Part shown: piece by piece, positions 1 to 6,254 of the stretch
How positions within the stretch are numbered: position 1 is the stretch's first letter
Layout of the letters: each line of letters starts with the position of its first letter
Origin: an uncultured Candidatus Saccharibacteria bacterium
GTDB taxonomy: Bacteria; Patescibacteriota; Minisyncoccia; Phycocordibacterales; Zambryskibacteraceae
DNA: 64,000 nt
Assembly: GCA_964355645.1 (NCBI GenBank)
Contig: CAYHDI010000001.1
Location: 28,778 to 92,777, forward strand
Direction: 5' to 3'
Made by a program: the position numbers and the translations under genes
Notes under the pieces: model-generated
The model's database searches: none
The model's input: only the letters and a program-made list of their open reading frames with translations
What the model was told of the DNA's origin: nothing

Positions 1-252
1 TTTCGTCCATGATTCGCTTCGACCGCCATCTCTCCGAAGAGTTAAGGTCGGTCGGCACCACAAGGAATCATTAGAAAGCAACGAAAGACTGGGAACGCGC
101 TTTGAAACCGCCAACCAGAAACTTACGTGAAAGGTCAAAAGAAGGAAGTCGGTTTCAGATATTTTTAATCAAGGGCACCTACCAGTCGTCAAAAAATTCC
201 AAGGGCCTAAGTTTAGAAGAATATTGACTTCGAGGAAATCCGGCTTTGTGCA

Positions 253-277
253 CCACGACCCCCAATCGTGGTTTTTT
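253..277 (+). terminator. intrinsic terminator hairpin CCACGA-CCCCCAA-TCGTGG followed by T6
   Basis: perfect 6-bp stem plus T-run seen in sequence; ends an upstream plus-strand transcript of unknown identity. Confidence 0.55.
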
Positions 278-314
278 CATAGAATTTGTGTCTATCATAT
301 TTTCCCTCTTTTAT

Positions 315-350
315 ACTCTTCTTACTGCCTATAGGTAATTATTAGCGTAT
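315..350. repeat. 36-bp direct repeat copy A (ACTCTTCTTACTGCCTATAGGTAA..CGTAT), contains palindrome CCTATAGG; abuts stop codon of PaaX-like gene
   Basis: near-identical copy at 919-954; seen directly. Confidence 0.85.
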
Positions 351-916
351 TATGACAAACCAAATTCTTGACGCAAGTGACGATCATTTTCTATCTCATC
401 AGCAATAATATATAAGACATCCTTCCCTACCCCAAAGTCTGTTTTAAGTAACCCAATAATATCTTCACAGTCATAAGGATAAACCCATACACTATCCTGC
501 AATCGATATAATCCTGCTTGATTAAACAGCGAACAAATTTGCTTACGAATCTTCTTTTTCTTTTCTGGGATATCAAAGATTACAAGTCTCCATTTCTTAT
601 CCCATCTCTTGGGTTTATTGAATTTATAATCTGTAATTTCCCATAAACGCAAAACTCTTTCACCTTCATCGGTCAATTGATAACGGCCATTCTCAAACTT
701 GAGCAATCCTCTTTTTGTTAGTTTTGATGCTGAAGACAAAATATATTCATTCTGACGAGCTTTGGGTAATAATCCGAGCCTGTCCATTGCACTCAAAACA
801 TTTGGAGCAACAAGCCCAATGCTCAAAACCCCTGCAACTTGAATAGTATTAAGAACGATTTTCTGCAAATGTTCCCGCTTAGCTTTTTTCTTGTGATTTA
901 TTTCTAATTTACCCAT
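350..916 (-). CDS. PaaX-family-like regulator: N-terminal winged HTH plus C-terminal Cas2-like/PaaX_C domain
   Basis: motif W-RLVIFDIPE...R..I...L...G...LQDSVWVYP resembles PaaX C-terminal (Cas2-like fold) consensus; purine-rich RBS inside upstream repeat. Confidence 0.6.
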   Translation of the reverse strand: MGKLEINHKKKAKREHLQKIVLNTIQVAGVLSIGLVAPNVLSAMDRLGLLPKARQNEYILSSASKLTKRGLLKFENGRYQLTDEGERVLRLWEITDYKFNKPKRWDKKWRLVIFDIPEKKKKIRKQICSLFNQAGLYRLQDSVWVYPYDCEDIIGLLKTDFGVGKDVLYIIADEIENDRHLRQEFGLS

Positions 917-918
917 AC

Positions 919-954
919 ACTCTTCTTACTGCCTATAGGTAAATTATAACGTAT
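919..954. repeat. 36-bp direct repeat copy B, immediately upstream of PaaX-like start codon (carries its RBS)
   Basis: matches 315-350 with ~4 differences. Confidence 0.85.
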
Positions 955-1015: not shown

Positions 1016-1189
1016 CTACTTGTCGGCAGCGTCGAAGAACGGAGCGAGTTCGGCTTCGAGTTCAGGGAATCTCTCAATGAGATCGTCGGTGAGCCGACCG
1101 AGATTCTGGCGAAGTTCCATGACGGCGCTCTTGGGAGGCGCTTCGTTTCGTTTGACATAGAACTCTCCTCCCATTCCTGGGATAGCCAT
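1016..1189 (-). CDS. small GC-rich ORF (57 aa, MAIPGMGGEFYVKRNEAPPKSAVMELRQNLGRLTDDLIERFPELEAELAPFFDAADK), hypothetical
   Basis: ORF below the 60-aa track threshold found by manual translation; ends 20 nt before its own terminator; local GC far above window average. Confidence 0.4.
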   Translation of the reverse strand: MAIPGMGGEFYVKRNEAPPKSAVMELRQNLGRLTDDLIERFPELEAELAPFFDAADK

Positions 1190-2339: not shown

Positions 2340-3113
2340 CTAGTTACGAATCATTACAATGTTGTATGTCCCAGCAGCAGGTGTACATGCCAATGCGGTC
2401 AATGTTGTGAAATCTAGTTGCAATATATCATTGGCAGATACACGATAACCTGTCATTGGACAAAGTGAAGTTGGAACAGGTCCATTAACGATTATCTTAT
2501 CCGTTGTTAATAAACTAGCAACTGCAAACGTCTGTTGAGTTGTTCCAATCGCGGCCGCAGTGGCAACTGGCGTTATAGCACCAGTCGTGAGAACAGAAAT
2601 TTTCGTAACAGCTGTTCCTCCACCAATTGCTATTGATGTCGCGGTTGCTACACCGAGAGCGGGGGTAATCAATACTGGAGATGTCATCGTTTGCACACCA
2701 GTGAATGTGTTGGCCGCATCGGTACGAGCAATTGTTGCAGATGTACTAGGAAAGGTCATCGTGGTGCCATCAGTACCAGCGAAGGTAAGAGTACTATTCG
2801 CTGTAAGAGTTTTCCCAGTAGCAAGAGTTAACACTCCTGTTCCTGTAGTAATAGTGTTGCCATTAATACTGGTGGCAGTTACCGTGCCTAAAGTGCTAGC
2901 ACCGGTGACTGTTAATGTCCCGCCCGTGTTGATATTGGTACTAATGGTCGTTGCTGCATTTACTATGCCTGTGACAAACAAAACCGAAACAATGACCGCT
3001 AGCCCAACACTAACCGGGCCTCGGCTAACAATCGTATTAAAGATATTTTTTATGGATGTCATGATGTCAAATTTATTAAAGAGGCATAATTCCTCTGCAA
3101 ATAATTGTACCAT
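2340..3113 (-). CDS. secreted Thr/Gly/Ala-rich repeat protein (putative surface/adhesin-like); start probably at MTSIKNIF (3062)
   Basis: signal peptide plus low-complexity T/G repeats; no recognisable catalytic motifs. Confidence 0.55.
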   Translation of the reverse strand: MVQLFAEELCLFNKFDIMTSIKNIFNTIVSRGPVSVGLAVIVSVLFVTGIVNAATTISTNINTGGTLTVTGASTLGTVTATSINGNTITTGTGVLTLATGKTLTANSTLTFAGTDGTTMTFPSTSATIARTDAANTFTGVQTMTSPVLITPALGVATATSIAIGGGTAVTKISVLTTGAITPVATAAAIGTTQQTFAVASLLTTDKIIVNGPVPTSLCPMTGYRVSANDILQLDFTTLTALACTPAAGTYNIVMIRN

Positions 3114-3176
3114 ACTGTTCTTTTATATATTAGGGAAATTGACAGACTGGGGATAACCCATTAAACTCCTATAACC

Positions 3177-3761
3177 ATGCTCGAATACAGCGAAATTACT
3201 GAACACAAATACATTGTTTTTGAAAATGAACCGTACGAGGTTTTGGGCGCCCATGTTTTCAGAAAACAACAGAGAAAGCCGGTGAACGCGACCAAACTGC
3301 GAAGTATGCTGACAGGTAGAATTGTAGAACATTCATTCCATGTTTCTGATAAGGCTGAAGAGGCTGATATCACCAAGAAGGAAGTGAAATATCTTTATAC
3401 GAACAAGGGCGAATTCTGGTTCTGTGAATCGAAAGATCCATCGAAAAGATTTGAACTGCCTGAAGTGATGATTGGAACTGCATCTAAATTTTTAAAACCA
3501 AATACAATTGTGGATGCCATGATTTGGGATGATGGGAAATCTGATGAAGGGAAAATCATTGGCCTGAAACTTCCAATTAAGATGGATTTGAAAGTGACCG
3601 AAGCTCATCCAGCGACGAAAGGCAACACTGCACAGGGTGCAAGCAAAATGGTCGTGCTCGAAACCGGCGCTGAAATCCAAGTCCCTATGTTTATCAAAGA
3701 AGGCGATGTCATTCGGGTAAATACTGACAACGGCGAGTATACGGATAGAATAACTAATTAG
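3177..3761 (+). CDS. efp: translation elongation factor P
   Basis: full-length alignment to EF-P (KLRSMLTG, YLYTNKGEFWF, GEYTDR motifs). Confidence 0.9.
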   Translation: MLEYSEITEHKYIVFENEPYEVLGAHVFRKQQRKPVNATKLRSMLTGRIVEHSFHVSDKAEEADITKKEVKYLYTNKGEFWFCESKDPSKRFELPEVMIGTASKFLKPNTIVDAMIWDDGKSDEGKIIGLKLPIKMDLKVTEAHPATKGNTAQGASKMVVLETGAEIQVPMFIKEGDVIRVNTDNGEYTDRITN

Positions 3762-4100: not shown

Positions 4101-4202
4101 GGTAACAAAAAAGCAGTTTTCGTGCCTCTCGGAAAGCTTGGCTTGAGAGGAGAAGTTTTCAACAGAGAACTATCGTGCAAAGAAAACTGCTTTTTTGTTA
4201 CC
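4101..4202. terminator. long inverted repeat (21-nt perfect arms GGTAACAAAAAAGCAGTTTTC / GAAAACTGCTTTTTTGTTACC enclosing a 60-nt structured core); candidate bidirectional terminator or small structured RNA
   Basis: seen directly; T-runs follow the inner stem on both strands; lies between rpsR stop and next gene. Confidence 0.5.
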
Positions 4203-4401
4203 TAGTAATATAAGGCAAGAATCCCATGAACCTTGCGCGTTTGATGGCCAAGGAAATCATTTGTTGAGACTTCGAAGAGATACCACTGCGCTTTTTGGAT
4301 TGAATCCTGGCGTGCGGGGTAAGGAATTTCTTCAAGGTATCTACATCCTTATAATCAACATAATTAATTTTGTGCTCTTTAAGAAAATCTGATTTTTTCA
4401 T
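4198..4401 (-). CDS. rpsR: 30S ribosomal protein S18
   Basis: INYVDYKDVDTLKKFLT...AIKRARFMGFLPY matches S18. Confidence 0.92.
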   Translation of the reverse strand: MKKSDFLKEHKINYVDYKDVDTLKKFLTPHARIQSKKRSGISSKSQQMISLAIKRARFMGFLPYITR

Positions 4402-4882: not shown

Positions 4883-5398
4883 TTATATATTATTTCCAGA
4901 CGTTTCAGTCGTAATTTCTGGCTCCTGGGCTTTCCCGACGCCTTCCAGGGTCGGGACTCCGATCTCTTCGAGCATCGGAGCTTCTTGTGCTCGACGAGCT
5001 TCACGTGCTTCAGCAAAGGTGAAAGTTGTCTCTCGAGGAGCTTTAATGAGCAAGAATCGAAGAATTTCTTCAATTTTCTCTATGCCAGCCTTAATCTCTT
5101 CAACTGCTGAAGGTTCAGCCTCGAATTTCATCCAACCGATATAAGCCTCGTTAACCACATATTTTCTCGCCCCAACAGTTTTGGACATCGAATATGCGAG
5201 TGTCTCGAGGAATGGCAATTCAGAATCTAGAGTCTTGCCTCCAGCTTTTTCTATTGTAGAAACAATTGTAGAGACCACTTTTGGAATATTGTCTTCGGTC
5301 ACACTTGGAAGGACCAAGTATCCGAGTTCATAAACAATAGCTTCCTTGTGGTCTTCTGTAATGGACATGAGTAAATCGTTAATCATTAATAATCTCAT
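4883..5398 (-). CDS. rpsF: 30S ribosomal protein S6 with acidic/Glu-rich C-terminal extension
   Basis: YELGYLVLP...GG...LAYS pattern of S6; classic rpsF-ssb-rpsR order. Confidence 0.85.
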   Translation of the reverse strand: MRLLMINDLLMSITEDHKEAIVYELGYLVLPSVTEDNIPKVVSTIVSTIEKAGGKTLDSELPFLETLAYSMSKTVGARKYVVNEAYIGWMKFEAEPSAVEEIKAGIEKIEEILRFLLIKAPRETTFTFAEAREARRAQEAPMLEEIGVPTLEGVGKAQEPEITTETSGNNI

Positions 5399-5471
5399 AT
5401 GCGCTTCCCCTATTTCAGAGATGCGTACAGAAGCCTGTCCGCCGTAGCCTTGGCGAAGGCGGGAGGTTTGG

Positions 5472-6254
5472 CTACTTTAGCACTAAGTTAAACATTCGGC
5501 AAGTGTTGGAAACTAAGGCTTTTTGGACAGTTTCCAAATCCTCTCCTCTTATTTCAGCGATTTTCTTCACTACCTCTTGCACATAGCTCGGCTCGTTGCG
5601 CTTGCCTCTATAAGGAACTGGCGAGACCCATGGGGCATCAGTCTCGGACATAATCATATTGAGTGGTGCATTCTTAATCACTTCATCATAATCTCGAGCA
5701 AAGGTTATCACTCCCGTGAATGACGTGGTGAATCCTATGGTCCAAAATCTTTTGGCTTGTTCGAGTGAACCGGTGAAAAAATGCAAATCCCCTCGAAGTT
5801 TTGGACCGTACAATTTAGCCAATGGTTCAAGGATTTCGAGAATTTCTTCGTACGCATCACGAGAGTGAATCATGATAGGTTTGTTGTGTTTAATAGCAAA
5901 GTTAATCTGCTCAAAGAAAAGATTTTTCTGTCTTTCAAAGTCTGTTGTTTTGTCTGTATGAAAAAAATCTAGCCCGCATTCCCCTATCGCGACTACTTTC
6001 GGGTGGTTTATTAATTCTTCAAATTTGTCTTCCTCAAAAACTATTTTGGGATCATCGACCGGATGAACACCAATACACGCATAAATTTCTTCGTGTTTTT
6101 CTGCGAGTTCTACTGCCCGTTTAGATGATTCGAAGTCTACACCCACTACAATTGTATGGGTTCCAGTTTCCTTGAGCCGATTGATGACTTCTTCTAAATC
6201 TTCACTGTAGTCAGGCAAATTTAAATGCGAATGTATATCAAAATATTTAGGCAT
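5472..6254 (-). CDS. tatD: TatD-family metal-dependent hydrolase/DNase
   Basis: FDIHSHL, GECGLDF, TDAP motifs. Confidence 0.88.
   Translation of the reverse strand: MPKYFDIHSHLNLPDYSEDLEEVINRLKETGTHTIVVGVDFESSKRAVELAEKHEEIYACIGVHPVDDPKIVFEEDKFEELINHPKVVAIGECGLDFFHTDKTTDFERQKNLFFEQINFAIKHNKPIMIHSRDAYEEILEILEPLAKLYGPKLRGDLHFFTGSLEQAKRFWTIGFTTSFTGVITFARDYDEVIKNAPLNMIMSETDAPWVSPVPYRGKRNEPSYVQEVVKKIAEIRGEDLETVQKALVSNTCRMFNLVLK

Follow-up and report, generated by a model that had tools for sequence, protein, structure and literature searches.

What purpose is served by a short sequence that frames a small regulatory gene on both sides? This question is raised by a 64,000-nt stretch of DNA (the window; contig CAYHDI010000001.1 of assembly GCA_964355645.1) from an uncultured bacterium deposited as Candidatus Saccharibacteria and placed by GTDB in the Zambryskibacteraceae, in which a gene for a protein here called mini-PaaX, built from a winged helix and a Cas2-like domain, lies between two direct repeats. 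An earlier examination of the letters without database searches (the sequence-only reading) had offered two answers, namely that the repeats are autoregulatory operators or that they are the boundaries of a small mobile or recombined cassette. Comparison with related loci strongly supports the former, since palindromes bracket the gene throughout the family, are specific to each locus and co-vary with residues of the recognition helix. With a probability of roughly 0.75, the repeats are the cognate operator sites of the encoded repressor, and the upstream one would serve autorepression.

A repeat search across the window placed the two copies, each of 39 nt, at 312–350 and 916–954, with a spacing of 604 nt, where the sequence-only reading had located them. 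The copies align over 38–39 nt with one 1-nt indel in the tail, and their first 27 nt are the same except for one base. The 24-mer ACTCTTCTTACTGCCTATAGGTAA occurs exactly twice in the 64 kb, even with three mismatches allowed (shuffle expectation 0.00), and the 21-mer core of the repeat has no exact match among 185,579 GTDB species genomes; the pair is therefore not a common intergenic repeat, an explanation that can be ruled out. No further palindromes of this class, either as a regulon or as a REP-like spread, were found above chance in the window. The similarity between the copies extends weakly for about 30 nt past the repeat, but needs two 4-nt gaps to do so. A degenerate tandem paralog beyond the downstream copy was rejected as well, as tblastn of the protein against the window returned the gene itself alone. 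With regard to the gene ends, the downstream copy overlaps the stop codon, as had been stated, by one base; the upstream copy was thought to end 2 nt before the start codon, but the ATG was found to follow it directly. The sequence-only reading also placed the ribosome-binding site within the upstream copy; the right arm of this copy, GCAGTAAGAAGAGT, is purine-rich, and a consistent Shine–Dalgarno motif was not found in the equivalent right arm across the family.

The same layout is seen in the relatives of the gene. The ortholog in locus L007 (86% identity), located like the window gene between efp and recA, has a 36–40-nt repeat at its ATG and just past its stop codon, and bracketing repeats of this length also frame the gene of L008, a relative with 78% identity located elsewhere, and that of L009, a paralog with 72% identity from the contig of the window, the repeat sequence being different in each of the three. 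For a survey, 80 loci were fetched from species-representative genomes (Zambryski-, Kaiser-, Taylor-, Adler-, Ryanbacteria and others) and 83 unique genes, coming from about 57 Parcubacteria genomes, were analysed. The gene's own upstream and downstream flanks resembled each other above the 95th percentile of non-cognate pairs in 69 of the 83 genes and above the 99th in 48, and nearly always exactly two palindrome copies were present per ±3 kb. The upstream palindrome is centred 17 nt before the ATG in the main clade and 37 nt before it in a more distant clade, while the cognate downstream site lies 0–85 nt past the stop codon (centre 17–85 nt) irrespective of the strand of the neighbouring gene; in nine loci the downstream copy is inverted relative to the upstream copy. 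Homologs belong to the Patescibacteria/Parcubacteria, mostly Zambryskibacteria, and amount to 2,206 proteins at E ≤ 1e-5 in 90%-identity clusters and to 272 clusters at 50% identity with E ≤ 1e-30, the best 150 representatives of which all have about 180–200 residues. More than 590 loci were matched in GTDB species-representative genomes, and up to five of the best 80 loci come from one genome. Paralogs within a genome differ at a median of eight of 16 specificity positions, cognate pairs at two of 16, and by this measure paralogs sharing a genome have orthogonal sites.

The 8-bp palindrome CCTATAGG pointed out by the sequence-only reading is present in both copies, but it is not the full unit, which is a palindrome of about 36–38 bp with outer TACR boxes. 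When base pairs are counted outward from the centre, pairs 0–3 form a central box (CTATAG, CGGTCG or CGATCG) that is symmetric in 80–100% of sites, pair 2 being C–G in about 100%. Pairs 4–9 are poorly symmetric (44–70%), and pairs 10–17, with the outer box TAC-R-Y-T-A-W, are again symmetric in 80–100%; within them pair 14 alternates between G–C and A–T and is complementary in 98–100% of sites. Mismatches between the arms comprise G·T (42 in upstream and 32 in downstream sites), A·C (31 and 35) and transversion types (129 and 115). Identity between upstream and downstream sites peaks at pairs 14, 13, 10–12, 3 and 1 and is similar in direct and inverted orientation. The symmetry, the pattern of mismatches and the indifference to orientation point to a duplex site for a symmetric protein dimer and not to an RNA hairpin. 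The competing possibility, that the palindromes act as RNA or single-stranded DNA hairpins in the 5′ leader and as a 3′ terminator or stabiliser, possibly bound by the Cas2 fold, which resembles an RNA recognition motif, draws on the co-variation of the two arms, on downstream copies that are often perfect 36–40-nt palindromes within the 3′ untranslated region, and on the 57 of 64 loci that have no other terminator-like hairpin within 260 nt. It is nevertheless very improbable, because the mismatches have no G–U bias and are mostly of transversion type, the six weakly complementary pairs by the central box would open a large internal loop, no consistent U-tract follows the downstream site, and in nine loci this site is inverted relative to the upstream one. 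Moreover, the −10 box lies inside the upstream left arm, which would leave the right arm alone to be transcribed, co-variation ties the bases to residues in the recognition helix of the winged-helix domain, and an Rfam search gave no match. The downstream site as the gene's only terminator was also considered and rejected, terminator-like hairpins following 7 of 64 family genes and 74 of 372 other open reading frames (ORFs), without a clear difference.

The protein encoded between the repeats consists of an N-terminal winged helix and a Cas2-like PaaX_M domain (residues 109–185), with no PaaX_C, and the chain ends at residue 188, about ten residues past the Cas2-like domain. PF20803 (PaaX_M) matches residues 103–176 with an E-value of 5.3e-18 and 65.3 bits (cutoff 24), whereas Pfam evidence for the winged helix is weak (HTH_45 at 0.007) and PF07848 was undetected by the Pfam search of the 188-aa protein. 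In the AlphaFold model (predicted local distance difference test score 75.6), helices span residues 37–46 and 52–68, the latter being the recognition helix, a β-hairpin wing follows at 72–81, and helix α-1 of the Cas2-like domain covers residues 118–134. The best Foldseek match in the PDB is E. coli PaaX (8a39, E-value 6e-5), followed by Rv0674 (3kfw), PadR/LmrR and Cas2 proteins; a PDB sequence search with the family profile gave nothing at E ≤ 1, so that PaaX surfaced through the fold search alone. The domain matches, the model and Foldseek thus agree with the earlier description of a PaaX-like regulator with a Cas2-like part. TIGR02277 (PaaX) reaches only 30.8 bits against a cutoff of 264.55, the aligned part being residues 58–157, and with neither the C-terminal domain nor a paa context the protein, though it would work like PaaX, falls outside the PaaX equivalog family. 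Nor is it a CRISPR Cas2: TIGR01573 (cas2) scores 26.3 against a cutoff of 24.5 but covers residues 109–145 only (model positions 2–39 of 96), Pfam CRISPR_Cas2 with 18.2 stays under its cutoff of 23.8, no tandem array of CRISPR-like period is present in the 64 kb, and no Cas1 family occurs among the called genes within ±10 kb. PADLOC reported partial Cas2 and winged-helix matches and assigned no defence system. Some family members (e.g. P0032 and P0118) are named 'CRISPR-associated endonuclease Cas2' in NCBI records, since TIGR01573 lies just above its cutoff on a 37-residue stretch, and given the missing CRISPR context this label is misleading. The motif VWVYPYDCED is invariant, and the Cas2-like domain is very strongly conserved across the family. 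An identical protein is encoded on ten groundwater metagenome contigs, e.g. Hain_H52 (189 kb).

The link between the palindromes and the adjacent protein comes from co-variation. Operator bases were correlated with columns of the protein alignment, and switches were counted on a neighbour-joining tree built without those columns. Pair 14 is coupled to residue 58 (mutual information 0.92 bit, z 24.7), Tyr or Phe occurring with G and Ile, Val, Ser or Thr with A; nine base changes at this pair stand beside eight class changes of the residue, and 72 of 73 tips agree. Pair 13 follows residues 61, 63 and 64, with Arg61 accompanying C and Ser61 accompanying T (six base changes, six class changes of residue 61, agreement at 55 of 57 tips), and the inner-box pairs 3–4 follow residues 121 and 125, with Asp125 accompanying C; for pair 4 and residue 125, ten changes were counted on each side and 45 of 49 tips agree. 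Such repeated, independent and matched switching of bases and residues identifies the palindromes as cognate sites of the adjacent protein. In the AlphaFold model, residues 58–64 sit in the helix 52–68 ahead of the wing, and residues 121 and 125 in α-1 of the Cas2-like domain, so that the Cas2-like domain appears to read the central box or, at the least, to constrain it.

The position of the upstream site suggests how binding would be used. A perfect TATAAT is found in the left arm of 26 of 58 upstream sites, compared with three of 58 right arms and nine of 64 left arms of downstream sites, and in the more distant clade the palindrome stands just upstream of a separate TATAAT beside the ATG. 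In the window, the hexamer would place the start of transcription near the centre of the palindrome, about 18–20 nt before the ATG. The upstream site differs very little between the window and the orthologous loci L007 and L092, although the intergenic DNA around it cannot be aligned, and the downstream site is likewise kept in both, with the downstream-specific left arm TAATAATTACC, amid DNA that is unalignable; to judge from this retention, purifying selection acts on both sites of the three loci. The right outer box of the upstream site has drifted to TACT (not TACG) in the window and in the orthologs. Mini-PaaX most likely binds the palindrome as a symmetric dimer, in which the winged-helix recognition helices would read the 6-bp outer boxes (TAC-R-Y-T), 24 bp apart, and dimerisation would be through the Cas2-like domain, positioned above the central box (C-T/G-A/G / T-A/C-G; CCTATAGG in the window) and probably touching it. 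Since the −10 box and the predicted start of transcription are covered by the upstream site, a dimer bound there would block RNA polymerase, and the gene would be under negative autoregulation through occlusion of its promoter.

Palindromes that co-evolve with the protein encoded between them are also expected of transposases and their ends, and the repeats might be the ends of a small mobile or recombining cassette whose protein binds them for excision, integration or homing, comparable to REP/RAYT units, the ends of IS200/IS605 or the attC sites of integrons. Several paralogs occur per genome, the orientation of neighbours seems random, and the Cas2 fold has nuclease relatives. Furthermore, the closest relatives (77–80% identity) occupy two sites, efp/recA and rpmB/M50, and some genomes, but not others, have the module between rpsG and fusA of the str operon. 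Conservation of gene order, however, makes mobility very unlikely: paralog lineages keep their neighbours across many genomes at 47–70% identity, in at least eight synteny groups (including positions between tpiA-pgk and HIT, next to gatB-obg, between rpsL-rpsG and fusA, and next to mnmA), and the efp/recA position is common to the window, L007 and L092. Copies of the gene in one genome have diverged to about 72% identity or less and have different operator sites, near-identical copies were not seen, and the palindromes are undispersed: each locus has two, and the remainder of the 64 kb has none. Among the called neighbours there are no adjacent transposase, integrase or recombinase families, and the fixed placement of the upstream site relative to the −10 box and the ATG fits a promoter operator. 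Carriage by phages or plasmids was rejected, no relative having been found among 2.9 million viral contigs (IMG/VR). The proposal of cassette boundaries made by the sequence-only reading is accordingly not upheld. Over deeper time the gene has been relocated, its 77–79% relatives (the group of L008, L093 and L094) lying between rpmB and the M50 peptidase gene; this relocation and the variable presence in the str operon are ordinary gene-family turnover.

Several observations were made at these two alternative positions. In L009, from the 189-kb contig of the window, the 72% paralog (4965–5620) has an operator pair of its own, ATACGCTATAATTTATCTATAGCAAAAATATAGCGTAT, and lies between rpsG and fusA in the str operon; beyond it come a bidirectional terminator and a 123-aa ORF without a Pfam match. 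In the relatives L008, L093 and L094, rpsG and fusA are adjacent and the mini-PaaX module is found between rpmB and the M50 peptidase gene. At the matching rpmB/M50 position of L009 (2777–3269) there are two overlapping small ORFs, the first of which has a weak match to the Phd/YefM antitoxins (7e-5, below cutoff), and the two may form a toxin–antitoxin pair.

If the repeats are operators of the repressor, as preferred here, the second site past the stop codon calls for an explanation of its own. Downstream sites are more perfectly palindromic than upstream sites, as would be expected of a binding site free of promoter constraints, and the downstream site is most likely a promoter-free auxiliary operator belonging to the same operator–gene–operator unit. 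A DNA loop enclosing the gene (about 600 bp) could help the repressor to occupy the weaker promoter site, or, alternatively or in addition, the bound protein could act as a roadblock that insulates the unit against neighbouring genes; either specific role is put forward tentatively, the odds being somewhat below even. In L094, past the gene (3001–3567), the downstream site at about 3600–3640 keeps the cognate central box CGCTATAGCG, but its outer boxes are of another specificity class, TACATCTA, despite Tyr58 in the protein, which hints that some downstream sites may be read by a different paralog, in a form of cross-regulation.

The downstream copy could instead be the promoter and operator of a separate downstream unit controlled by the same repressor, for which the candidates are a 39-aa ORF or an antisense RNA toward recA in the window and M50-rpsL-rpsG-fusA elsewhere. 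In the window, the copy keeps a −10-like TAATAAT and is followed by AAAAGAGGGAAAAT-ATG, a good Shine–Dalgarno sequence and start for the 39-aa ORF; in L008 and L093, downstream copies with a perfect TATAAT precede co-directional genes; and a third cognate site occurs about 1.6 kb upstream in L019 and L023. Across the family, on the other hand, the downstream copy does not behave as the promoter of another gene. Of the neighbours that come next, 43 converge with the gene and 37 run in its direction, a perfect TATAAT is limited to nine of 64 downstream sites, −10-like boxes are not enriched where the neighbour is co-directional (6/24 versus 21/38), and the distance to downstream start codons is not fixed. 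The spacer that would have to contain the unit in the window, about 400 nt without a called gene (L001 10606–11001), measures only about 100 nt in L007 and about 70 nt in L092, and both loci nonetheless retain the downstream site. It contains a plus-strand terminator-like hairpin (about 253–283), the 39-aa ORF on the minus strand and hairpins of the UUCG/GAAA type, but the ORF has no Pfam match, no Rfam or tRNA/tmRNA match was found in the spacer beside the downstream copy, and the spacer folds no better than its shuffles (z-scores −1.5 and −1.2). A separate downstream unit is therefore considered improbable. The third cognate site is located at about 1363 in L019 and about 165 in L023, two orthologous loci, 1.5–1.6 kb upstream of the gene, with a TrmB-like regulator gene in between; in L023 the site precedes a vestige of the gene's first codons (IGKLEKK...). 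Such a site may represent a partial duplication of the operator and the gene start, or a genuine extra target.

The partial duplicate in L023, consisting of a site and the first codons of the gene, also illustrates how a downstream copy could be a neutral relic without function, the promoter region having recently been duplicated nearby or copied by gene conversion. The two copies of the window share 27 bases including the asymmetric right arm, and when compared with L092 and L007, two of three changes in the downstream copy move toward the upstream sequence, which suggests a short conversion tract; the identity over 27 nt is partly secondary. The ancestral downstream site, as in L092, already resembled the upstream site. 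Since orthologs at 80–86% identity hold the downstream site with TAATAATTACC, conserved where the flanks are not, the site predates their split; it is present in about 80% of family members and is more symmetric than the upstream site, and a functionless relic is hardly credible.

Several points weigh against a repressor with two operators. The whole case rests on comparative sequence, and the co-variation proves cognate binding but not regulation, as transposases likewise co-vary with their terminal repeats. The only detectable sites of the regulator flank its own gene, leaving no obvious physiological output, targets elsewhere having been checked within about 85 kb of this genome only. The downstream site of the window shares the degenerate right outer box (TACT not TACG), so that a symmetric dimer would get one good outer half-site and the centre at either copy. 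From centre to centre of the two sites, the distances are not helically phased (Rayleigh p ≥ 0.4 for periods of 9.5–12), a null result that is uninformative for loops of 600 bp, and in the counts given above terminator-like hairpins are not significantly rarer after family genes than after other ORFs. Finally, the strong conservation of the Cas2-like domain suggests an extra function, such as ligand or partner binding or catalysis, that would fall outside the operator model.

Among characterised systems, the closest is PaaX, the repressor of phenylacetate catabolism in E. coli and Pseudomonas, which has the same winged helix and Cas2-like PF20803 domain. PaaX recognises the operator TGATTC-N27-GAATCA and represses its own Px promoter by hindering RNA polymerase (PMC9493321). 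The geometry of the family operator, TACRYT-N24-ARYGTA, is similar in that 6-bp inverted boxes are placed far apart. PaaX is larger, with about 305–316 residues including a C-terminal effector domain that the 188-aa protein does not have. Unlike PaaX, mini-PaaX has no paa genes near it, its neighbours being housekeeping genes (efp, recA, ftsK, ribosomal and glycolytic genes); a genome has several orthogonal paralogs of it; its operator has an extra central box co-varying with helix α-1 of the Cas2-like domain; and a second operator directly follows the stop codon. With Cas2 it has in common the ferredoxin-like fold and a conserved Asp at the end of β-1 (FDIPE), but it differs in its N-terminal DNA-binding domain and in a match of just 37 residues, and in place of a CRISPR array it has a pair of operators separated by 600 bp.

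Repressors with auxiliary operators and DNA looping are well known from the OL and OR sites of lambda CI, which flank the immunity region, and from O1 and O2 of LacI. Mini-PaaX resembles these in that the repressor gene lies between or beside its cognate operators, the promoter-proximal site being compromised and the distal one nearer to ideal symmetry. Unlike them, it has the second site exactly at the 3′ end of the regulator's own gene throughout the family; the looping is putative, and the distances are unphased. REP/RAYT units and the ends of IS200/IS605 elements provide the precedent for a gene with cognate palindromes on either side that evolve together with the DNA-binding protein it encodes. 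This likeness extends to the mini-PaaX gene, whereas the latter has no HUH/Y1 transposase fold, its palindromes are undispersed and its copies mostly direct, and its synteny is stable. The PadR/LmrR proteins, found by Foldseek at ranks 3, 13 and 21, have a structurally similar N-terminal domain and are typically small autoregulated repressors, but they dimerise via a C-terminal helix and have short operators, while in mini-PaaX the Cas2-like domain would space the DNA-binding domains by about 28 bp.

The co-variation suggests that the Cas2-like domain of PaaX-type proteins helps to read DNA, which has so far been seen in no PaaX–DNA structure. A more far-reaching interpretation, judged unlikely, regards the operator–gene–operator unit as a self-contained module that targets only its own flanks, such as a selfish or 'memory' element or a set of programmable insulators, which would have multiplied into orthogonal paralogs in Parcubacteria and in which the Cas2 fold would read the repeat; direct reading of the approximately 36-bp palindrome by that fold is proposed because inner-box bases co-vary with the α-1 residues 121 and 125. 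Were this true, the family would be a living example of a Cas2-like protein with cognate palindromic repeats of about 36 bp outside CRISPR, and the invariant VWVYPYDCED and FDIPE surfaces might carry nuclease, ligand or partner activity at the repeats. For the operator reading, a single locus is a modest curiosity, and weight comes from the co-evolving architecture of a whole family in an uncultured lineage. Bacteria of the Candidate Phyla Radiation cannot be grown alone, and to our knowledge almost nothing is known of their transcription control; no papers were found that combine PaaX with Patescibacteria, the candidate phyla radiation or Cas2-like proteins, and none on this family. As each gene has two binding sites attached to it, regulator/operator pairs can be read straight from metagenomes. 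The co-switching of single residues and bases provides rules of a recognition code that are open to direct testing, and the family represents a natural set of orthogonal repressor/operator pairs, possibly usable as a toolkit.

Table 1. Coordinates of the mini-PaaX locus and its flanking features in the window.
Feature	Position	Strand	Description
Mini-PaaX regulator gene	350–916	minus	188 aa; from the ORF list
Upstream operator (predicted)	917–954	minus	reads ATACGTTATAATTTACCTATAGGCAGTAAGAAGAGTGT, then directly ATG (914–916); left outer box TACGTT, −10 box, central box, degenerate right outer box
Central box of upstream operator	932–939		CCTATAGG
−10 hexamer TATAAT (predicted)	943–948	minus	within left arm of upstream operator; read from sequence
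Downstream operator (predicted)	313–350	minus	reads ATACGCTAATAATTACCTATAGGCAGTAAGAAGAGTAT; its first A doubles as the final base of the stop codon TAA (350–352)
Central box of downstream operator	328–335		CCTATAGG
Intrinsic-terminator-like hairpin	966–1000	minus	CCCCGCACCAATTGGTGCGGGG and T run; just upstream of upstream operator; best palindrome of upstream flank
Spacer without called gene	1–312		part of about 400 nt; recA stop about 85 nt before window start

Along the strand of the regulator gene, the order of features is efp (on the opposite strand), two secreted-protein genes, a 5′ fragment of efp, a GC-rich 57-aa ORF with its terminator, the upstream site, the regulator gene, the downstream site, the spacer and the convergent recA. 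The hairpin between the 57-aa ORF and the upstream operator would end the former and shield the regulator promoter from read-through. The ORF (1016–1189, minus strand, no Pfam match) belongs to a GC-rich island at about 960–1260 with 53–56% GC, compared with about 36–40% around it; the island is absent in L007 and L092 and may therefore be foreign DNA.

The first 96 nt of efp are duplicated with 89% identity (1307–1402 and 3174–3269), and the duplicates bracket 1.87 kb with two minus-strand genes, for a protein of 275 aa with PG_binding_1 and one of 257 aa without a Pfam match. In L007, efp directly adjoins the regulator gene, and in L092 the two genes are present and the efp fragment is absent. 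The arrangement suggests that the 1.87-kb stretch was inserted in the 5′ end of efp and that the start of the gene was rebuilt in the process. Farther along, a perfect 21-nt inverted repeat (GGTAACAAAAAAGCAGTTTTC at 4101–4121 and GAAAACTGCTTTTTTGTTACC at 4182–4202) has 60 nt between its arms, and its right arm enters the 3′ end of a minus-strand 67-aa ORF (4198–4401), which, by the rpsF-ssb-rpsR synteny seen in L007, may encode ribosomal protein S18.

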